Assembly (NCBI GenBank): GCA_020696385.1
Contig: JAEHCQ010000007.1
Coordinates: forward strand, 56,818 to 120,817
DNA length: 64,000 nucleotides
Reading direction: 5' to 3'
Origin: Methanobacteriota archaeon
GTDB taxonomy: Archaea; Thermoplasmatota; Thermoplasmata; SG8-5; JAGLSY01
Shown in pieces: positions 1,505-45,420 of this stretch (its first letter is position 1; the number at the start of each line of letters is the position of its first letter). Made by a program: the position numbers and the translations under genes. Below the pieces are notes generated by a model. The model was not told the origin of the DNA and ran no database searches. It worked only from the letters and a program-made list of their open reading frames with translations.

Positions 1505-2628
1505 TGTCAGAAAATCTCAAGGCCGTCATTCTAGCAGGCGGTATTGGAAAACGCCTGAGGCCATTGACCGAACACAGGCCAAAACCATTGATACCCGTGG
1601 CAGGCAGACCATGTATTGATTTTGTTATCAGATCCTTAGTAAAAGGCGGCTTCACAGAGATCATTGTAACAACTGGCTATCTGTCAGATAGGCTAATAAA
1701 AAGTATCGGAGATGGCTCCAAGTACGGAGCGACCATTCTTTATTCCTTCGAGGAAGAGCCAGCTGGAACTGCGGGCGCAGTCAAGAAGGTGGCTGATTTT
1801 CTGGACGACACATTTGTTGTCGCCAGCGGCGATCTTTTGGCAGATATCGACATGGGCCAGCTTTTGAAATATCACAAGGACAAGGAAGCGATGGCCACCA
1901 TGGCCCTGACAAAGGTCAGTGACCCCACGGACTTTGGTATCGTGGGTATGAACAAGGCCAATAAGATCACAAAATTCGCAGAGAAACCGAAGAAAAAGGA
2001 TGTCTTCTCTAACCTTATCAATGCAGGTATCTACGTTCTTGAGCCAGAGGTCCTGGACATGATACCCGAGAATACGATGTACGATTTCTCCAAGCAGGTC
2101 TTCCCCGAGCTTCTGGCAGCGGATAAAAAACTGTACGGAAAGATGATCAAGGGCATCTGGAGAGATATTGGAAAACCCATCGACCTCCTTCAAGCCAGCC
2201 TGGATGTTGTTGAAAGGGAAGGCACGAAGATCAAGCTGGAGAAAGTGAAGACAAAGGGCAATATCATCATTGGAAAGAACACGGCCATCGAGAAGGGCGT
2301 GAAGATCATCGGGCCAGCATACATCGGTGATGATGTCTATGTTAGCTCTGGAACGGTCATAGACAAGTCATGTATCTATGATAGCGTTTTCATCGACCGG
2401 GACACGAACATAAAGAACAGTATAATCCTGGATGGCAGCAAGATAGGGTGGCAGAGCACCATTGTGGAAAGTGTGATCTCCAGGGATTGCCAGGTTGAAG
2501 AGGACGTGACAATCACCAAGAGCATAATCGGGGACAAGATGACGGTGAAGATCCACTCGAAATTGGAAGATGCGAACCTCACCCAGCCCCCAGAGAGCAA
2601 TAATGGCAATAGTAATCGCAATTTATAG
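1504..2628 (+). CDS. NDP-sugar pyrophosphorylase (mannose-1-phosphate guanylyltransferase-like) with left-handed beta-helix
   Basis: AVILAGGIGKRLRPLT..RPKPL, GTAGA, INAGIY, WRDIG, C-terminal hexapeptide repeats. Confidence 0.9.
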   Translation: MSENLKAVILAGGIGKRLRPLTEHRPKPLIPVAGRPCIDFVIRSLVKGGFTEIIVTTGYLSDRLIKSIGDGSKYGATILYSFEEEPAGTAGAVKKVADFLDDTFVVASGDLLADIDMGQLLKYHKDKEAMATMALTKVSDPTDFGIVGMNKANKITKFAEKPKKKDVFSNLINAGIYVLEPEVLDMIPENTMYDFSKQVFPELLAADKKLYGKMIKGIWRDIGKPIDLLQASLDVVEREGTKIKLEKVKTKGNIIIGKNTAIEKGVKIIGPAYIGDDVYVSSGTVIDKSCIYDSVFIDRDTNIKNSIILDGSKIGWQSTIVESVISRDCQVEEDVTITKSIIGDKMTVKIHSKLEDANLTQPPESNNGNSNRNL

Positions 2629-18066: not shown

Positions 18067-18199
18067 CGAACCATGAAGAATGACTGGCCTTATTAAATTT
18101 ACTATATATATGGTGAATGATATATATGAAAATGAAAGCCAGGCATATGTCCATTCATATCTCTTAAATACCCTCAAGTTTTACTGGTCGAAGGCGGTT

Positions 18200-19675
18200 A
18201 TGGGCATGTGGAAGAAAAACATAGACGGAGAAGAATATTTTTTGACCAAGAGTAAGTATATGAATGGTATCCAGTGTCCGAGATTATTGTACAAGGTGGT
18301 GAACATGCCAGATGATATCCCACCGCCTGATGAGGCCACCCAGTTCATTTTCAAGCAGGGTAATGAGGTTGGGGAAATGGCCAGGAAGGTATTTCCTGGT
18401 GGCATCCGCATCCAGATGTTCCCCTGGCATACTATCACCAAGAGGACGAAAGCGGCCCTCAACAGCCTGGCCGAGCACGTTTACGAGGCAGGGTTCCTTC
18501 ATGATGAAGTGGTCGTGCTTGTGGATGTCCTTAGAAAGCTGGACGGCAAGACCGTGGACATCATCGAAGTTAAACAATCCACAAGGCGAAAAGATGAGCA
18601 CATTCCGGATCTGGCAATACAGAAATACGTTGTTGAAGGAAACGGGTTCAAGGTCAATAAAACATTTTTAATGCATCTGAACCGCGACTACGTACATCCA
18701 GGCGGCGGAGATGCTGAGCTTCTGGCCATGGAGGATTGCACGGAGGAAGTGAACGAGCACCTGGCCACTGTGCCGGAAAGACTGGCTGCCATGAAAGAAA
18801 CATGCGAGCTTCATTCACCACCCAGAATGGACATCGGCCCGCATTGTACCAGCCCGAGAGAATGCGCGCTCATGCCCGAGTGCTGGGCACGAGTTCCAAA
18901 GCCATCGATCTTCAATATAACTGGCTACAGGAATAAATGGGATCTGTACGAGCAGGGAATTGTTCAACTAAAAGATGTGCCGGATGATATCAAGCTAAGC
19001 AATAGCCAGCAGGCGTTTCTGGACTCCTACAGACTTGGCCATCCGATAATAGATACCCGGGCGATCCAGGAAGAATTGGGTAAAATGGAAAAGCCAATTC
19101 ATTTCCTTGATTTTGAGACAATAAACTGGGCGGTTCCCAAGCATGAGGGGATGCGATCCTACATGCAGGTTCCCTTCCAGTGGTCCCTACACACACTGGA
19201 AGATGGGAAATTGGAGCACAAGGAATTTCTCTGGGACAACCAGGATGATCCACGATTGCAATTAACTGAGAAACTGCTGGATGCCCTCGGAGACAAGGGC
19301 TCGATAGTTGTTTATTCATCCTTCGAGAAGAGCCGATTGAACGAGCTGGCGGACGCGTTTCCAGAGCACCGCGATAGAATTAACGCGGTGGTCGATCGCT
19401 TATGGGACCAGCTGGAGATATTCAGGAACTTTTACACCGACGCAGCATTTGGAGGAAGCAATTCGATAAAGAACGTGCTGCCAGTACTTGTGCCGAATCT
19501 AAGCTACAAGGATCTGGAGATACAGCAGGGGGGACTAGCGATGGCCACCTTCGCCAAGTTCATCGAGATGAAGCCAGGCCAGGAAAAAGAAAAGATTAGA
19601 GATGCTCTTCTGAAATACTGCGAAAGGGATACGTTCGCGATGGTTGAGATTCATCGTAGGCTGGCGGAGCTTTGA
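18200..19675 (+). CDS. DUF2779-family nuclease: PD-(D/E)xK domain with 4-Cys Fe-S motif plus C-terminal RNase H-like exonuclease
   Basis: LTKSKY..GIQCPR, VDVL..IIEVK, HC..PRECALMPECW, LDFET, PFQWSLH, SIKNVLP, YCERD; start at the ATG after AAGGCGG. Confidence 0.82.
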   Translation: MGMWKKNIDGEEYFLTKSKYMNGIQCPRLLYKVVNMPDDIPPPDEATQFIFKQGNEVGEMARKVFPGGIRIQMFPWHTITKRTKAALNSLAEHVYEAGFLHDEVVVLVDVLRKLDGKTVDIIEVKQSTRRKDEHIPDLAIQKYVVEGNGFKVNKTFLMHLNRDYVHPGGGDAELLAMEDCTEEVNEHLATVPERLAAMKETCELHSPPRMDIGPHCTSPRECALMPECWARVPKPSIFNITGYRNKWDLYEQGIVQLKDVPDDIKLSNSQQAFLDSYRLGHPIIDTRAIQEELGKMEKPIHFLDFETINWAVPKHEGMRSYMQVPFQWSLHTLEDGKLEHKEFLWDNQDDPRLQLTEKLLDALGDKGSIVVYSSFEKSRLNELADAFPEHRDRINAVVDRLWDQLEIFRNFYTDAAFGGSNSIKNVLPVLVPNLSYKDLEIQQGGLAMATFAKFIEMKPGQEKEKIRDALLKYCERDTFAMVEIHRRLAEL

Positions 19676-19809
19676 GTAGCTCCGAGCGAGCATGCTAACC
19701 CGAGTTTTCTTTTGCACTGTAATACTTTTCTTTTGGAGGGTTAGCCAGCGCAGCGAGGATAAAAGAAAAGGCTTACGTGGGGATACACAGAAGGCTGGCA
19801 GAATTATAA
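19676..19809 (+). mobile_element. Small structured element (101 bp) plus 33-nt recoded duplicate of the host gene 3' end, copy A
   Basis: Shares CCGAGCGAGCAnGCT and the 25-nt AGCGAGGATAAAAGAAAAGGCTTAC with 44134-44310; 19777-19809 encodes VGIHRRLAEL* versus the gene end VEIHRRLAEL*. Confidence 0.75.
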
Positions 19810-19894
19810 ACATTGCATATGCCAGCAAAGTATATTCTCAACAATGTATATTCGGATCAGTACGAGCATGCCCCGGGGCGAGTGACGCAGACCT

Positions 19895-19932
19895 GGGGTA
19901 CTATATTCTATATCTCAGTGAGTGACAGTTGC
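19895..19932. repeat. Dispersed 38-bp repeat, copy 1 (core of a larger structured repeat)
   Basis: GGGGTACTATATTCTATATCTCAnnGAGTGACAGTTGC, 36/38 identical to 63585-63622. Confidence 0.85.
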
Positions 19933-20156
19933 GATGTGCCAGCAAGAGAATAAACTCCTCGCATTAATAGAGCGAGGAGTCAAATCAATCCCCGCCTCGA
20001 TCAAAGCAGGGGCGGGGTCTTTATCCTCACCCAGCATAACAATTCCATACGAGCTTGCGTAGCGCAAGATCAAAGCAAAAATGCAAGGCCGTATTTGATT
20101 ATGTAGGCTTGATGGAAAGGTATTTTAGATGCTATTCACTTAGTGAATCGGAGAGA

Positions 20157-21086
20157 ATGGTGAAAGAGATGAATAATCTGAATGAGATGGCCCAGTTAGT
20201 GCCATCTGATAAAAAATATCCTGTTATTTCTGTCAAGAACCGGGGCAGATCGTGGAATGAATTCACGAAAAAAGAATTAAAACATATAAAGAGTCAATTT
20301 GATGGTACCAATTTGACAATAAAGAAAGTTGGCCCACTTTCATTTTCTTTAATGTTGGGCTCGGATCTAAAATATCACTTTGAAGCGCTCGACAATAAAT
20401 CCAACAGAAAAGTCGCAATAATGATCTATGATACGCCTTTGTATTATGAGGGGCAATTAAGTTTGATAAACCATGTTATGGCTGATTTGAGTAGATCAAA
20501 GAAACATACCGATTATTTGATATTGATCTACTCTACGAATCAATTACCTAAGGACTATCGCTATTACCTTTCAAGCACACCCATGGTAAAACTGGAATTG
20601 GCGCTTTCCTGGGTTTATCAATTAATAAAATTCGAATATGAAAGCAATTTGAATAAAGAGCTAAACTCGGGAGAATTGGGGAGTGCTGTAAAGCGATATA
20701 CTGGCAATGCTATGCCATTAGGCGAATTCAGTCAGAATATCGGGACATTTCAGAGGGCTATCAACGAATTGAGGGATATCCCGGACTCAACAAGGTATTC
20801 AAAACAACGGCTGAATAATGCCATCCAGGCATTGGGATTGTATTTTGGAAATTACCTACATACTGATATCCGGTTGAAATGGAATATTGGACCTGACGGT
20901 GATCCTCGAACAATGAATATTCTTCCAGGATATTATATTGAACCATTCACAATAGTCGAAGATGCTATTGAAAAGGGAGATTCATTAGAAGAAATCTATA
21001 ACGATATAGTGGAGAAAGTTAAAAAGAACGTAATTCCACAATATGCAAAGCCAATAAAAGGAGGTGAATTGAAAAATGGGATTTGA
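20157..21086 (+). CDS. Hypothetical protein in low-GC islet; C-terminal region resembles DUF3806-type domains
   Basis: AT-rich ORF; ALGLYFGNYL...LKW...PFTIVEDAIEKG; start chosen at the ATG after GGAGAG. Confidence 0.6.
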   Translation: MVKEMNNLNEMAQLVPSDKKYPVISVKNRGRSWNEFTKKELKHIKSQFDGTNLTIKKVGPLSFSLMLGSDLKYHFEALDNKSNRKVAIMIYDTPLYYEGQLSLINHVMADLSRSKKHTDYLILIYSTNQLPKDYRYYLSSTPMVKLELALSWVYQLIKFEYESNLNKELNSGELGSAVKRYTGNAMPLGEFSQNIGTFQRAINELRDIPDSTRYSKQRLNNAIQALGLYFGNYLHTDIRLKWNIGPDGDPRTMNILPGYYIEPFTIVEDAIEKGDSLEEIYNDIVEKVKKNVIPQYAKPIKGGELKNGI

Positions 21087-21480
21087 TGCTTATTTAATCA
21101 CTGAAGGAGAGGAAAATGATATAGAACCTCCTACCGATTCTCGCTTATTTTCAAGTCTTATATTTGACATTGATTATCAAGAGGAATGCACTATGGAAAT
21201 GTTATCGAATTTATATAATCTGGATTTATCTCCTTTACGTCAAGTTGGAAGCGATTCAAGCGATCAGGCCTGGCAAGATCCGGGTAGTCTTTCGCAGGCC
21301 TTTGAATCATTGCTAGAGGCTATAGAAAGAGAAGGCGATGATTTCATTGGTATGCCTTTGAACGAGCATCTATTATATCCAGGCGATGTAACATCCATTA
21401 AAAAATCTCTAAGGGAGGTAATTGAGGGCTGTAATAAGGCATTGAAATCAGGAAAGAGAGTACAGTTGGTAATTAATTAA
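21076..21480 (+). CDS. Hypothetical acidic protein (immunity-protein-like)
   Basis: GGAGGTGA RBS; MGFDAYL start; 134 aa. Confidence 0.6.
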   Translation: MGFDAYLITEGEENDIEPPTDSRLFSSLIFDIDYQEECTMEMLSNLYNLDLSPLRQVGSDSSDQAWQDPGSLSQAFESLLEAIEREGDDFIGMPLNEHLLYPGDVTSIKKSLREVIEGCNKALKSGKRVQLVIN

Positions 21481-21641
21481 AGTCAACTCACTTTTAGAAT
21501 CGGCAACAGGGTAAGCATTGCCAGGCCGTGTTTGATTGAGGAGGAGGCGTGATTCCATACGAACGATTTTAAAGAACGTTCGCTATTCAATTATGGGTGA
21601 AGGCCATGAGCACGACTTAATCAAATGAGGAGGATGTTGAT

Positions 21642-22118
21642 ATGACGCGTTTACAAGTTCGTTTTACCCAGAAACGCCCTAATAATCAAGGATACTTGAT
21701 GGGCTGGATACGGATTTACATTAGTATTGATAATAATATCATTCACGGAATCCATACATCGGATGTTTATCCGCCATATGATAGTTTTCTTGATTTTTTC
21801 CAAGATATTTTACATAACAATTTGCCTACAAGATGCGATATATATGAGGAGGGAATATTTACAGTGTTCATTGCGGAAGAAGTGCCTAATTCCGATTTAG
21901 TTGAATTCAATATCTGTGTAAAAAAGGATGAATATACTGATTCAGATCTCAAATGTGTTTATTCTGATAAATTTAAAAAGCAAGTATTGGTTCGTGAGTT
22001 TATAACGAAATATCGCACATTTTTGTCAGATGAATACCGTCCAGAATCTTGGGAAGAAGTAGGCGGACCAATGCCAATGTCAAAATTGGAGCAAATTGAA
22101 AAGGAACTAACAAATTAA
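21642..22118 (+). CDS. Hypothetical protein in low-GC islet
   Basis: GAGGAGG RBS; 158 aa. Confidence 0.6.
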   Translation: MTRLQVRFTQKRPNNQGYLMGWIRIYISIDNNIIHGIHTSDVYPPYDSFLDFFQDILHNNLPTRCDIYEEGIFTVFIAEEVPNSDLVEFNICVKKDEYTDSDLKCVYSDKFKKQVLVREFITKYRTFLSDEYRPESWEEVGGPMPMSKLEQIEKELTN

Positions 22119-22134
22119 TTTCGTAGTGCCCTTC

Positions 22135-24207
22135 TCACCCCTCATAAAAGAACTTCAATTCCTCTTCGATATTCTTCATGTTCCTCATGCTCAGATCTTC
22201 AGGGAAATAATTCCTGTACTTCTGATATCCAAACCTCTTGTCCAGCAGGATGATCGCCGCCCTATCTGTTTCAGATCTGATACACCTGCCCATTGACTGG
22301 AGAACGCGATTGATGGCCGGGGACGTGTAGCCATAAGCTCGCCCATTACCCCTGCCGAATTTCGTATCATAATAATCGATAAGCTGGCTTTGCTCCAGAG
22401 ATGGAGGGGCGAAAGGCACTCCGACTATCATGACAGAATTGAGAAGATTGTCCTTGTAATCGATTCCTTCAGAAAGAGATCCGCCCATCACTCCGAGCAG
22501 AAGGCCACCCCAGGTGGATTTTAGATCGATAAGGGTATCCAGCATCCGTCTTTTCTGCGCCTTGTTCGAGGTCTGGGATTCTGCCAATATCTCTTTATCG
22601 GTTTCGATGCGGAAGCGAATTTCCTTCAGCATACTATAAGATGGGAAGAAGACCGCGACATTGCCAGGTATCACCTTGCAGGCCTTGCCAATGTGCTTCG
22701 CGATGCGCTCGTACATCGCATCAGATCTCTCATTGTAAAGAGTGGTGACATCATCCGCGACATATACTGGCCTATTGGCTGGCGGGAAGGGAGATGGATA
22801 GGTTCGAAGTATCTGAGAACCATTTTCAATTCCCAGGATATCTGCGAACATCTTTGTCGGAAATAGGGTTCCGCTCATTATGATGCTAGAATGAAATTCC
22901 TTGAATATCGGAGCGGAAATAACCGATGGATCCAGTAGCCTGAAGTAAAGCTTTGATCCATCCTTCTGGCTTGATATCCTGATCAGTCCCTCCAGATCCT
23001 GATTGTAACCCTCCAGAAACTCGCTCACAACAGCTGCGGAACTGCTCTGGCCCTTGACCATCCGGATCTCACCTATCTTTTTCAATTCCTTGATGAGCGA
23101 GTCAAGATCCATGGCTTCGAAAAGTGACTGGCCCATGATACCTTCTATTCTTGACAGGAAAACATCCTTATCGACAACTTCCTCTTTGCCAGGAGGAACC
23201 GCATCCAAGATCTTGCGTAATTCCTTCTTCATCATATTGAGTATGTGCGCGAGCTGTTGATTGGACATCTCGGATATGGCTTCCTGAAGCATGTTCGTGG
23301 TCAGACTTTGGGTGTAATAATTCCTTATTCTATCTGGTAGATTATGTGCCTCGTCAACTATCACGATGCACTCATCCAGTGACTTGTCAAATGATTCGAG
23401 AATTGTTTCCCTAATATCCTGGTCGAAGATATAATTGTAATCGCAGATGATGACATTGGCATCGGCCGCGGCCTTCAATGCCACCTTGTGAGGACAGGCT
23501 CGCTGACCCACAGCCACATCCTTCAATTCCTCAACATGAAGGATATTGGAATGTATCTGCCCTATCAGATCCTCATCTTCCGGAGCTTTGAAATAACTGC
23601 AGGTGCCTGTTTTCTGGCTGGTCCTGCATAGGAGCGTGAAGGCCGCATGAAATTCCTCAGAAATATCTCTGGGGCACATGGCCTGTTTTGAGATTATATC
23701 CACCACTTTTATCCTGGCATTGAAAATGGAATTGATCACCTTGAGAGTGTCAACCGCGATATAGTGCTGTGATTGTTTCGAGGTTAGGAAAAATACGACC
23801 TTGCCAGTCTTGAGAGATTCCGTGATCGCCGGTACAAGAGCAGCGGCGGTCTTTCCAATGCCAGTGGGAGCATAGGCAAGAAGGTGTTTATTCAATTTTA
23901 TGGCCGTGCTGGCATCCTTGATGAATTGTGCCTGTCCATCTCTGGCTGTAGGGTGTGGAAAATATGGAATGGTGGGATGCTTGGCATGAGCTTCGGTCAT
24001 TTTAGGAGACGAAGCGAAGGATGGATCTTTCTTCTTGAGTTGGTCAAAAGATATTATCTCGGCAGGAGGAGATGAGGCTCTGCGACCAGGTTGGCTGGCC
24101 TGGCCGCCACTTGTTTGTCGACTACATTTTGGACAAATGGTCTCTTTCGTTCCACCCCTTTTTCGTATCTTCATCAGGGTTCCACAGCTACCACAGAACA
24201 TGGACAT
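22135..24207 (-). CDS. Rad3/XPD-family Fe-S DNA helicase with N-terminal zinc ribbon
   Basis: APTGIGKT, four Fe-S Cys, CDYNYIF, VDEAHN, MSGTL, FFPSY, SEGIDY, QSMGRCIRSETDR. Confidence 0.92.
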   Translation of the reverse strand: MSMFCGSCGTLMKIRKRGGTKETICPKCSRQTSGGQASQPGRRASSPPAEIISFDQLKKKDPSFASSPKMTEAHAKHPTIPYFPHPTARDGQAQFIKDASTAIKLNKHLLAYAPTGIGKTAAALVPAITESLKTGKVVFFLTSKQSQHYIAVDTLKVINSIFNARIKVVDIISKQAMCPRDISEEFHAAFTLLCRTSQKTGTCSYFKAPEDEDLIGQIHSNILHVEELKDVAVGQRACPHKVALKAAADANVIICDYNYIFDQDIRETILESFDKSLDECIVIVDEAHNLPDRIRNYYTQSLTTNMLQEAISEMSNQQLAHILNMMKKELRKILDAVPPGKEEVVDKDVFLSRIEGIMGQSLFEAMDLDSLIKELKKIGEIRMVKGQSSSAAVVSEFLEGYNQDLEGLIRISSQKDGSKLYFRLLDPSVISAPIFKEFHSSIIMSGTLFPTKMFADILGIENGSQILRTYPSPFPPANRPVYVADDVTTLYNERSDAMYERIAKHIGKACKVIPGNVAVFFPSYSMLKEIRFRIETDKEILAESQTSNKAQKRRMLDTLIDLKSTWGGLLLGVMGGSLSEGIDYKDNLLNSVMIVGVPFAPPSLEQSQLIDYYDTKFGRGNGRAYGYTSPAINRVLQSMGRCIRSETDRAAIILLDKRFGYQKYRNYFPEDLSMRNMKNIEEELKFFYEG

Positions 24208-42320: not shown

Positions 42321-42737
42321 ATGGGTTCGGACGAGGCGAAAATAGAGAAAAAGAGACTCAAGGCGGAGCAGAAGGCCAAGAAGAAGGCGGCCAAAGCAGA
42401 GGAGAAAGAAGAGAATCAACCAGTGGAACCAGACAAGCCAGTAGAGTCGGTGAAGCTGGAAGAACCAAAGGAACAGCAGGCTGTCGAAAAGCCTGCTGTT
42501 TCCGAGCCTATTGAACCAGTCAAACCTATCGAGCCAGTACCAAAACCACAACCAACAGCGATGCCTGTCCAGAGCCACAAGCCAACACAGGCTCCAAGAA
42601 AAAGAAAGCCACAGCCAAAGATAATCGTCCAGATGCCGAAAGTTCCATGGTACAAGGATCCGAGATGGATCAGTGCGATCATCGGAGCAGTGAGTTTATC
42701 ACTGGCATTGATAAGTATTTTCACAGACTGGCTGTGA
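42321..42737 (+). CDS. Pro/Lys/Glu-rich protein with C-terminal membrane anchor
   Basis: Low-complexity PVEP/KP region, PWYKDPRW then a TM helix; start at the MGSDEA ATG. Confidence 0.6.
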   Translation: MGSDEAKIEKKRLKAEQKAKKKAAKAEEKEENQPVEPDKPVESVKLEEPKEQQAVEKPAVSEPIEPVKPIEPVPKPQPTAMPVQSHKPTQAPRKRKPQPKIIVQMPKVPWYKDPRWISAIIGAVSLSLALISIFTDWL

Positions 42738-42885
42738 ACTATCAGGCTCTAAAAAATTTATAAGCCTGAAAGTTCCCATTTCATAGGCCATAAGCCCCAA
42801 CTCGCAAAGTTGACAACTTTGCGTTTATTTGCAGATACACCGATGGGCTTACGGCAACCGACTACTTTTCATATATAAATCAAAA

Positions 42886-44100: not shown

Positions 44101-44310
44101 CTACTTCTTTACAACAATGCTAAGAACATCCTCGTAAGCCTTTTCTTTTATCCTCGCTCCTCTGGCCTGGCTCCTGAATCAAGCTGTTAGCTTGACAAAA
44201 TAGTTGCATGGACTTCGTCCACAACTAAAAAAGAAAAAATCGCCGGAGCTCGGCTATGCCGAGATTCTGAAAGCTCAGCTCTGCTGAGATTCAGCCTGCT
44301 CGCTCGGGTA
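44101..44310 (-). mobile_element. Small structured element (177 bp) plus 33-nt recoded duplicate of the host gene 3' end, copy B
   Basis: Same terminal motifs as 19676-19776 with four extra internal hairpins; 44133-44101 encodes EDVLSIVVKK*, identical in protein to the gene end 44343-44311. Confidence 0.78.
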
Positions 44311-45420
44311 TCATTTCTTGACAACAATGCTCAGCACGTCCTCGTCCTTCAAAACATGGCCAATACTTACTCGCTGGCCAGGGAACTTCGCACTTGGCCC
44401 CCAGACTCGTGCGTATCTGAACTTTTCTCTAAAATCACGATGAAGACTATCGCAAACCACACCCACAGTGGAATCCTCCTTGATGACCAGTGGTTCTATC
44501 AGATCCGCATCCTGGCCCTGTGGTTTGAGGAATATCCTGACGAACTGGCAGATATCGAATATTTCTTGTTTGAATTGCTCGATCATAATGTCTTTCTCGG
44601 CGGACATGCTGAAGACATTCCAGCCATCCAGTGCCTCGATCACCTTGTCCACCTCCTCCTTTGGAAGCAGATCGATCTTATTGAGCACGACTATGGCATC
44701 GACATATACTTTATTCCCGGAGAGATAATCTATGAGCTGGTCCTCATCGATATCTTCCCTCAGGACGATATCGGCATTGATCACTCCATAAGAGGACATG
44801 ATGTTCTTGACCATTTCCTCATCCATCTTGGTCATTTCCACGGTGTGATTGACATTCAGGCCACCCCTGAAGCTCTTGTAAATTCGAATATCGACCGGCC
44901 TCGCATTGAGGCGCATGCCAGCCTTGTAAAGTTCACGGACGATTATATCGATGTCATATCGGAAGACATCGACCATCAGGATGAGCAGATCCGCGCTTCT
45001 AGCTGCTGCTATCACCTCTCTGCCACGCCCTTTTCCCTTGGACGCGTCCTTGATTATACCTGGCAGATCCAAGATCTGCACCTTCGCACCCTGATAATCC
45101 ATTATTCCTGGCACGACATCCAGGGTGGTGAATTCATAACGACCAACTTCACTGGTGGCGTCGGTTATCTTGTTAAGGAGAGTTGATTTTCCCACGGATG
45201 GAAATCCCACGAGAGCGACTGTGGCATTACCTGATTTCTTCACAGCATATGATTTACCACCACCCGAGCTGGCTGCTCTTCTTTTTTCCTGATCATCCTT
45301 GAGCCTCGCCATCTTGGCTTTCAGCTTGCCAATATGATGCTGGGTGTTCTTATTGTACTTCGTCTTCGCAATCTCTGCCTCGATGTCCGCGATCTGTTCT
45401 TCAATATTACCCATGTTCAA
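44311..45420 (-). CDS. DRG/RBG1-family GTPase with TGS domain
   Basis: YNKNT.HHIG.LKAK, GFPSVGKST, YEFTTL, DLPGII, GKGRG, ARVWG.SAKF.GQ. Confidence 0.95.
   Translation of the reverse strand: MNMGNIEEQIADIEAEIAKTKYNKNTQHHIGKLKAKMARLKDDQEKRRAASSGGGKSYAVKKSGNATVALVGFPSVGKSTLLNKITDATSEVGRYEFTTLDVVPGIMDYQGAKVQILDLPGIIKDASKGKGRGREVIAAARSADLLILMVDVFRYDIDIIVRELYKAGMRLNARPVDIRIYKSFRGGLNVNHTVEMTKMDEEMVKNIMSSYGVINADIVLREDIDEDQLIDYLSGNKVYVDAIVVLNKIDLLPKEEVDKVIEALDGWNVFSMSAEKDIMIEQFKQEIFDICQFVRIFLKPQGQDADLIEPLVIKEDSTVGVVCDSLHRDFREKFRYARVWGPSAKFPGQRVSIGHVLKDEDVLSIVVKK

Follow-up and report, generated by a model that had tools for sequence, protein, structure and literature searches.

A 64,000-nt stretch of contig JAEHCQ010000007.1 (assembly GCA_020696385.1) from an archaeon of the class Thermoplasmata, hereafter the window, contains a gene of the DUF2779 family whose stop codon is followed directly by a short structured element, E, and then by a second version of the gene's own last codons. 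The same arrangement lies behind another gene on the opposite strand of the window. We call these places site A and site B, the gene end upstream of the element U and its copy downstream D, and collect the coordinates in Table 1. E, about 95 nt long, recurs throughout the genome, in most cases together with such a gene-end copy, and the two versions of a gene end appear to descend from two different alleles. The genome, here G000, comprises 2.28 Mb in 50 contigs (C1-C50; 94.5% complete). It was compared with the congeners G001, G002 and G003, with the 22 genomes of its order (G000 included) and with 141 sampled genomes of its class.

At site A the DUF2779 gene ends GTT GAG ATT CAT CGT AGG CTG GCG GAG CTT TGA, and the initial annotation of the window was right that this end is repeated behind the element, positions 19777-19809 reading VGIHRRLAEL*. 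It had counted a copy of 33 nt in which 10 of 11 differences were synonymous. The copy and its synonymous bias hold, whereas the length does not: the GTGGGG with which those 33 nt begin matches the consensus of the element's tip, CTTMCGKGGGG, so the true copy is 27 nt, the apparent E-to-G change belongs to the element, and every difference within the copy is synonymous. G002, the closest relative, has a single gene end and no E here. U equals its element-free allele save for one Arg codon (CGT vs AGA). D differs from that allele at about nine positions, being the more divergent version, and runs on directly into a low-GC insert not found in relatives. Aligned with the G002 locus by BLAST, site A has a 2465-bp insertion (19677-22141) made up of E, D, a copy of a second repeat family (R2) and an islet of three open reading frames (ORFs). 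Judged against G002, U is evidently the native end at site A and D the divergent one. The element had initially been thought to bring in a divergent end that displaced the original; at site A the polarity is the opposite, with the native end upstream. As to which version element-free alleles resemble, a check proposed at the same time, the answer at site A is U, and two other loci leave the matter undecided, with U and D equidistant from the relative.

The gene at site B is unrelated to the DUF2779 gene, and its U and D again differ synonymously only. G001, G002 and G003 all lack E there and have a single gene end, and U and D share the derived codons AGC and AAG against all three relatives. 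An exact 25-mer links the two sites (19752-19776 on the forward strand and 44134-44158 on the reverse strand), for which 100 shuffles gave 0 matches. The pairing of an identical 25-mer with a gene-end copy at two unrelated genes, the observation from which the initial annotation set out, is thus confirmed in the sequence.

Allowing up to three mismatches, the 25-mer occurs 14 times in G000. An nhmmer profile of E built from 11 short copies returned 53 matches in the same genome, 47 after merging, and a covariance model used for the class-wide search found E in 31 of the 141 genomes and 12 of 65 genera, so that the element, described at the outset as recurrent, can be called a multi-copy family. 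Three subfamilies are distinguished by their tails, and long forms, which reach about 400 nt, have additional hairpin modules in their middle. When 185,579 species genomes were scanned with an exact pattern, 34 stretches matched, 33 of which lie in records of Thermoplasmata, Thermoplasmatota, Methanomassiliicoccales or Methanobacteriota metagenome-assembled genomes (MAGs) and one in a Sulfuritalea record. E is a non-autonomous, strand-specific structured repeat family that is widespread in Thermoplasmata. Its copies stand in sense orientation and closely follow a stop codon, the 3' end of a tRNA or the end of a different repeat. For 21 of 38 copies, a sense ORF of 80 codons or more has its stop between -70 and +12 nt relative to the 5' end of E, whereas 12.7% of random places are so situated. 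A scan of positions 19000-20500 against Rfam 15 (E-value up to 10) produced chance-level matches only, none of them to omega-RNA or HEARO, pattern scans of viral contigs yielded 0 E matches, and a literature search (supplements aside) found no description of the element. An autonomous long copy was also considered and rejected: in G000 no pair of E motifs encloses an ORF, pairs lying far apart rest on poor 3' matches, and the long copies with an ORF between the conserved motifs that had been suggested at first were not found there.

Two tandem arrays, at C47:27144-27594 and C2:12212-13703, contain three E of different subfamilies alternating with three diverged versions of a flank of about 100 nt, which indicates repeated events at one place. 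At C33:220219-220323 an E copy without duplication is conserved at the same locus in all four species of the genus (G000-G003) and may have been co-opted for a host function.

For the gene-end copies, the 31 E copies with a candidate adjacent repeat were carried forward from the 47 merged matches. The 16 rows dropped were five short fragments (C11:568184, C22:356914, C44:183531, C44:216474 and C33:252959, the last of these joined to the adjacent match), five additional units of tandem arrays (C11:530666, C44:62248, C44:62329, C47:27345 and C47:27518) and six copies for which the aligner gave no adjacent repeat (C11:492512, C22:218833, C33:26015, C33:220219, C44:66235 and C47:165281). On re-examination, 30 of the 31 have a direct repeat of the upstream flank that starts at the 3' tip of E, spans 17-320 nt and shows 67-100% identity; among the 31, the repeat of site A was recognised by translation only. 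With such a spread, the figure of exactly 33 nt, initially taken as a property of the element, is a coincidence, while the broader proposal that a gene-end copy is general to the element is borne out by these 30 copies. U ends at or a few bases past a stop codon, a tRNA 3' end or, twice, the end of an R2 copy. Perfect pairs flank E directly at C33:1417 (32/32), C11:72989 (22/22), C11:632370 (24/24) and C33:175441 (48/48). R2 served as a control family and has a flanking repeat in 0 of 14 full copies, a contrast beyond what chance would give. Elsewhere, an adjacent repeat accompanies 12 of 32 E copies in other Thermoplasmata MAGs and, scored without a fixed rule, about 10 of the 29 best-match loci in relatives.

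The differences between U and D follow the reading frame. Of 23 loci entered into a codon test, three lack a sense ORF of 50 or more codons upstream and were skipped; the 20 counted have 119 differences, distributed as 21, 14 and 84 over codon positions 1, 2 and 3. In terms of codons these are 76 synonymous against 25 non-synonymous differences, with no gaps; one counted locus, C46:40826, contributes seven of the non-synonymous ones and is possibly no real gene, so its inclusion lowers the synonymous bias. Free decay of D would, by our own estimate and not by a computed control, place about 45-50% of differences at third positions. Repeats of up to about 53 nt have about 23 synonymous and 4 non-synonymous codon differences (hand tally of per-locus rows). 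The long repeats are mosaics with an identical centre and heavily recoded first or last codons, and at C50 both copies of a 320-nt repeat include a whole tRNA whose T-arm shows compensatory changes. Relatives with a single gene end and no E were found at four places: site A, site B, C46:100217 and C11:577121. Taken together, the third-position and synonymous bias and the compensatory tRNA changes show that U and D derive from two different functional alleles and that D did not decay in place, in keeping with the suggestion of the initial annotation that both versions had been under coding selection, the synonymous bias now holding genome-wide.

Three other origins of the copies were rejected. 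A target-site duplication of fixed length that decays neutrally is at odds with lengths of 17-320 nt and with the position and codon counts just given, and a fixed-length duplication of the Cas1 or casposase type with the variation in length. As for a diversity-generating retroelement, the differences are not adenine-specific and G000 has no reverse transcriptase (RVT_1).

Where E meets D, G occupies positions 1, 2, 3 and 4 of the repeat in 12, 14, 13 and 11 of 29 cases, respectively, the genome-wide frequency of G being 0.229. In our reading of the junction table, complete tips (CTTCCGKGGGG) precede A or T, and shortened tips run into target sequence that continues the tip consensus (CTT/CCGATGG, CTC/ACGGTGG and CTTCC/GG, the slash marking the junction). 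On the 5' side of E is a spacer of 0-54 nt, in one case the last 20 nt or so of an R2 copy. No core is common to the borders of the roughly 29 different repeats, which are alike only in being rich in G, and no conserved motif or TTAC-like tetranucleotide was found to the left of U or of E; targeting of the IS608 type, which would place TTAC there, was rejected for that reason. The junction from E to the copy bears the signature of annealing over a few bases and not of a precise transposase cut.

The lower stem of E covaries. Across 73 distinct sequences, it is paired in 90.9% of cells, compared with at most 47% in slid controls, and seven of its eight pairs have changes on both sides. Inside the stem, two pyrimidine tracts surround a variable hairpin, and a purine tail follows 3' of the stem. 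Pairing between tracts and tail was scored with a register-free script, alignment-column counting having been dropped since the subfamilies are out of register. Over 50 combinations with 26 tails, tract 1 (5') fits the tail better as a parallel pyrimidine image in 33, worse in 0 and equally in 17, and tract 2 (3') fits it better as an antiparallel complement in 40, worse in 0 and equally in 10; a reversed-tail control of the mirror script is a mere mirror of the result and carries no extra information. One example is the tail AAAGAAAGAG with tract 1 TTTCTTTCTC and tract 2 TCTTTCTTT. Single-sequence folding of E was uninformative, with z-scores of -1.2 to +0.4. Mirror symmetry of this kind is expected from a triple helix and not from duplexes or duplication, and it implies that in a single strand of E, RNA or single-stranded DNA (ssDNA), the tail would pair with tract 2 by Watson-Crick and with tract 1 by Hoogsteen contacts. 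The result would be a predicted pyrimidine-motif triple helix about 11 nt from the 3' tip. The layout is that of ENE elements with a genomically encoded A-rich tract, and E contains what defines an ENE-type triple helix in sequence: two pyrimidine strands within a stem and a matching purine tract. For prokaryotes, passages of a 2026 review name triple helices of the riboswitch type only, and they mention the ENE type for eukaryotes and viruses only.

Tentatively, and with somewhat more doubt than belief, we read the gene-end copies as recombination scars, left where the 3' end of E was spliced by microhomology into a second allele. A free 3' end would arise at the tip of E, where the triple helix could protect it from trimming. 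It would then pair, through G-rich microhomology, with another copy of the same locus on a sister chromosome or on DNA of a related lineage, and this contact between tip and second allele would be the only new junction. The homologous upstream gene would hold the two molecules in register, making this a one-sided homologous join completed by microhomology. Synthesis or joining would resume at a variable distance upstream of the gene end, and the product would run from the gene (allele 1) through E and the gene end (allele 2) into the downstream sequence. A tip protected in this way would explain why the junction always lies at the end of E.

Several points weigh against recombination scars. 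The reading names no enzyme or intermediate, and the first arrival of E behind a new gene is explained neither by scars nor by the transposition alternative considered below. The pile-up of different E subfamilies at C47:27144-27594 likewise goes unexplained by scars. About 60% of the E copies in other MAGs lack a repeat, so duplication is not obligatory, and six full copies in G000 lack one as well, among them the old, genus-wide copy at C33:220219. At C46:100217 and C11:577121, U and D are equidistant from G002 and their polarity is unreadable. The genomes compared are kin and not independent samples, so that covariation counts overstate independence, and the stem alignment was fitted to the stem. 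Finally, runs of T6-T7 are expected to terminate archaeal transcription. One subfamily has them in tract 2, so that its transcripts would be expected to stop short of the tail, which speaks against a fold in RNA for that subfamily.

Searches for enzymes bear on the alternatives. The C-terminal domain of TnpB (PF07282) has 0 matches in G000, with a control search positive in 8 of 14 genomes. RVT_1 was not found in G000 either, other reverse transcriptase families not having been searched, and just 4 of the 31 E-bearing genomes have it. G000 has four matches to tyrosine recombinases, none on the contig of the window, and a self-megablast of the genome revealed no multi-copy insertion sequence. 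A single Y1 transposase gene lies outside the window at C50:1968-2396 (PF01797, E-value 1.2e-28); it scores 119.5 bits with the NCBIfam IS200/IS605 model (cut-off 55) and 28.2 bits with REP_Tyr_transpos (cut-off 80), so it is not a RAYT. The initial statement that no TnpB, Y1 transposase or integrase is evident in the window holds, for TnpB, across the 94.5%-complete genome; a Y1 gene is present outside the window. This gene stands upstream of an E copy, with a tRNA between, and the downstream repeat at C50 includes the last 60 nt or so of a diverged transposase allele. Close orthologues (E-value below 1e-42) occur in 20 of the 141 genomes, of which 19 are E-bearing, and 12 E-bearing genomes had no orthologue with this query, including all seven of family f12 and both of family f15. 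E lies within 1.5 kb of the gene at one of 20 loci, that of G000 itself, on the downstream side. The gene is single-copy, its place beside a Leu-type tRNA is kept across two families, and its flanks in other genomes are different hairpins and not E. We regard a link between Y1 and E as a weak lead, not as a finding.

At three Y1 loci in other genomes (L098 in G011, L099 in G014 and L104 in G015), some 216 nt of hairpins separate the Y1 gene from a partial copy of its own 3' 60% downstream, an architecture of a new end displacing an old end that occurs here without E; the two types of C-terminal allele are arranged one way round in G011 and the other way round in G014. The class-II tRNA beside Y1, which has the long variable arm of the Leu type, has GAA (Phe) as its anticodon in G000 and in three further genomes, while the corresponding tRNA of other relatives has CAG or GAG (Leu). 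Such a tRNA, Leu-type in body but Phe in anticodon, could cause UUY codons to be misread.

The main alternative, which we consider unlikely, is an unknown kind of transposition that makes a long, variable target-site duplication, the copies being identical at birth and the outer U or D being overwritten later by recombination with element-free alleles, in tracts that must stop at the heterologous element. Several perfect pairs do flank E directly, the long repeats have the predicted identical centre with diverged 5' and/or 3' edges, and functional alleles as donors would account for the synonymous bias. However, crossovers inside a copy cannot make short pairs that are diverged throughout, such as those of site A, where about a third of the positions in 27 nt are changed, and site B, where differences run through all 33 nt, and the short repeats still show about 23 synonymous to 4 non-synonymous changes. 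Microhomology at the junction would not be expected from precise strand transfer, and we know of no prokaryotic transposase that makes duplications of 17-320 nt. Mobilisation of E in trans by the Y1 (HUH) transposase, in the manner of repetitive extragenic palindromes (REPs) and their REP-associated tyrosine transposases (RAYTs), appears distinctly improbable to us. Here the transposase would make one-ended cuts, one at the tip of E and one at some variable distance upstream, and so release circles of gene end plus E. By homologous recombination these would re-enter the homologous gene of another chromosome and duplicate the flank excised with E. Such a role would suit the one Y1 gene of G000 upstream of an E copy, the 19 E-bearing genomes among 20 with an orthologue, and a gene kept single-copy beside its Leu-type tRNA in two families; E is also strand-specific and hairpin-bearing, as IS200/IS605 ends are. 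Yet E is near the gene at only one of 20 loci, where other flanks are different hairpins, 12 E-bearing genomes gave no orthologue with this query, and the co-occurrence may reflect shared ancestry only. Moreover, neither E nor U has a conserved tetranucleotide at its left border, and the RAYT model gives 28 bits where 80 are needed.

The initial annotation put forward the hypothesis of RNA-guided homing, in which E would be the scaffold and the gene-end copy the guide of a TnpB- or IscB-like nuclease acting in trans, with the recoded upstream end protecting the occupied allele. The copy does start precisely where the structured element stops on its 3' side, in the way that an omega-RNA guide adjoins its scaffold, and the synonymous recoding is real, but we now find the idea hardly tenable. 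G000 has no TnpB (IscB was not searched specifically), E has no Rfam match to omega-RNA or otherwise, and the copy, at 17-320 nt, is not guide-sized. Many pairs are identical over the first 20 nt, so a guide would cut its own chromosome; copies without a gene-end repeat are common (about 60% in other MAGs), and the upstream end at site A is native and unrecoded. Miniature integrative elements akin to cis-mobilizable elements (CIMEs), for which a site-specific integrase would use an attachment site carrying a replacement gene end, would explain why the targets include the 3' ends of tRNA and protein genes, why elements accrete in tandem at single sites and why the copy differs from the resident end, as a foreign attP would, and four tyrosine recombinase matches are at hand. 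We nevertheless judge this very unlikely, as more than 25 unrelated targets have no common core, the junctions are ragged with microhomology and do not fall inside an identical core, one family of about 95 nt would need a different attP for each target, and three pattern scans found no E in viral contigs. The chance seems similarly faint that E is a retroelement like a short interspersed element (SINE), its triplex-stabilised RNA being reverse-transcribed at a nick that pairs with the G-rich 3' end and its second strand cleaved at a variable place: this would account for duplications of variable length, a ragged 3' end with microhomology and filler at the 5' junction, but RVT_1 is missing from G000 and from all but 4 of the 31 E-bearing genomes, and duplications that are identical at birth leave the synonymous bias unexplained. 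To strain-chimeric assembly artefacts around a repeat we give almost no credence. The assembly has 50 contigs, and E lies near several contig ends (C3, C33 and C50); against this, the architecture recurs in differently named assemblies, among them on contigs 956 kb and 137 kb long, an assembly graph can lead from the E tip to the interior of a gene only if some reads span that junction, and the equally abundant repeat R2 shows no duplication.

Taken further, the scar reading would make E a new kind of recombination-promoting mobile element, with microhomology joining its triplex-protected 3' DNA end to the homologous gene end on another allele. It would move horizontally between related archaeal lineages, carry neighbouring DNA such as the 2.3-kb islet of site A, and leave the displaced end as a fossil of the other parent; we think this extension doubtful. 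On the scar reading itself, gene-end copies would preserve the allele of the other parent and serve as a log of recombination between diverging archaeal lineages, an exchange record readable from genomes of uncultured Thermoplasmata. The mirror-symmetric covariation is in itself sequence evidence for a pyrimidine-motif triplex in a prokaryotic repeat. Should RNA also adopt the fold, archaea would have their first ENE-type 3' triple helix, a counterpart of an mRNA 3'-end stabiliser; should it form in DNA, it would be a natural structure that steers repair. For annotation, short gene-end copies of this sort should not be taken for pseudogenes, guides or CRISPR-like spacers.

The islet at site A has a GC content of 0.35-0.39, compared with 0.44-0.50 in neighbouring windows, and its ORFs of 343, 134 and 158 aa are orphans wedged between two convergent conserved genes. 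No Pfam family matched them above threshold, a sub-threshold match to DUF3806 being the only one; for the ORF part of the islet, none of the other 21 genomes in the order gave a match, and the first ORF had no relative among the metagenome contigs searched. The 27-nt D of site A had 0 exact matches in metagenome contigs. Among sequencing runs, no RNA run was listed for this sequence; the only DNA run (share 0.08) contains other E and R2 copies but not the site A locus, its contigs ending at 19774-19781, that is, at the tip of E. R2 is about 230-300 nt long, has several covarying hairpins, contains CGAGCATGCCCCG and ends in CACCCAGCWTAACAAA. It gave 47 nhmmer matches in G000 (for example C33:137542-137840 and C22:273166-273466), occurs in G001-G003 as well and lacks a match in Rfam. 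A third intergenic repeat, at 42730-42870 of the window, has dozens of matches of 70-88% in G001-G003 and is unrelated to E and R2.

Table 1. Features of sites A and B and of the Leu-type tRNAs beside the Y1 transposase gene. Positions are those of the window unless a locus is named.
Feature	Position	Strand	Basis or remark
DUF2779-family gene	18080..19675	+	ORF list; Pfam PF11074, E-value 4.9e-39
U of site A, IHRRLAEL*	19649-19675	+	last 27 nt of DUF2779 gene
Element E, copy A	19676..19782	+	107 nt; sequence, nhmmer and covariance model matches, stem covariation, mirror-tract test
Copy A, 5' motif CCGAGCGAGCATGC	19682-19695	+	
Copy A, lower stem	19694-19701 with 19738-19745	+	
Copy A, pyrimidine tract 1	19705-19713	+	
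Copy A, variable middle	19714-19725	+	
Copy A, pyrimidine tract 2	19726-19734	+	
Copy A, linker	19746-19760	+	
Copy A, purine tail	19761-19771	+	
Copy A, tip CTTACGTGGGG	19772-19782	+	
D of site A, IHRRLAEL*	19783..19809	+	27 nt; differs from U synonymously only
R2 copy	19811..20046	+	contains CGAGCATGCCCCG, ends CACCCAGCATAACAA
Low-GC islet	20055..22118	+	three ORFs: 20055-21086, 21076-21480, 21642-22118
D of site B, EDVLSIVVKK*	44101..44133	-	33 nt; continuous with native downstream flank
Element E, copy B	44134..44310	-	long form, extra hairpin modules between pyrimidine tracts
U of site B, EDVLSIVVKK*	44311..44343	-	last 10 codons and stop of upstream gene
Leu-type tRNA with GAA	L014:1181-1268 and 1660-1746		G000 C50; also L095, L096, L109

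Set beside known systems, E shares with gene-end-targeting integrative elements and CIMEs a replacement 3' end, unequal direct repeats and tandem accretion; in contrast to them it has no integrase or shared core, has dozens of targets and measures only about 95 nt. Like the miniature derivatives of IS200/IS605 (PATEs) and the omega-RNAs of TnpB, it is strand-specific and hairpin-bearing without inverted terminal repeats, has TTAC-like letters near one end and is followed at its 3' end by an informative flank. It differs from both in lacking a target tetranucleotide, in having long duplications instead of none and in showing no TnpB and no similarity to the omega-RNAs of Rfam. The REPs and REPINs of bacteria with their RAYTs are likewise short, abundant, structured extragenic repeats behind genes, and they share their genomes with a Y1 HUH transposase that is single-copy and vertically kept. 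Here, however, the transposase is an IS200/IS605 equivalog with no E flanking it in 19 of 20 genomes, and a REP is a palindrome of 20-40 nt where E is about 95 nt long with a fold of the triplex type. We know of no report of REPs duplicating gene ends. REPs are possible 3' barriers to mRNA decay, a likeness that suggests a possible role for E.

As a process, the proposed splicing resembles homology-facilitated illegitimate recombination and microhomology-mediated break-induced replication, which are generic repair routes of bacteria and eukaryotes: they too combine one homologous anchor with a GC-rich microhomology junction, and their outcome varies among a duplication, a precise join and neither. 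Those routes do not predict what is seen here, where every junction has the tip of a single repeat family on one side. As a structure, E resembles the ENE with its A-rich tract, as in MALAT1, the PAN RNA of KSHV, TWIFB1 and other transposable-element RNAs. The ENE is known from eukaryotes and their viruses, whereas E is known from sequence alone and its fold is equally possible in ssDNA. In both, a stem encloses two U/T-rich strands around an upper hairpin and a genomically encoded purine-rich tract follows downstream near the 3' end, and the covariation of E fits the U.A-U and C+.G-C triples of such a helix.

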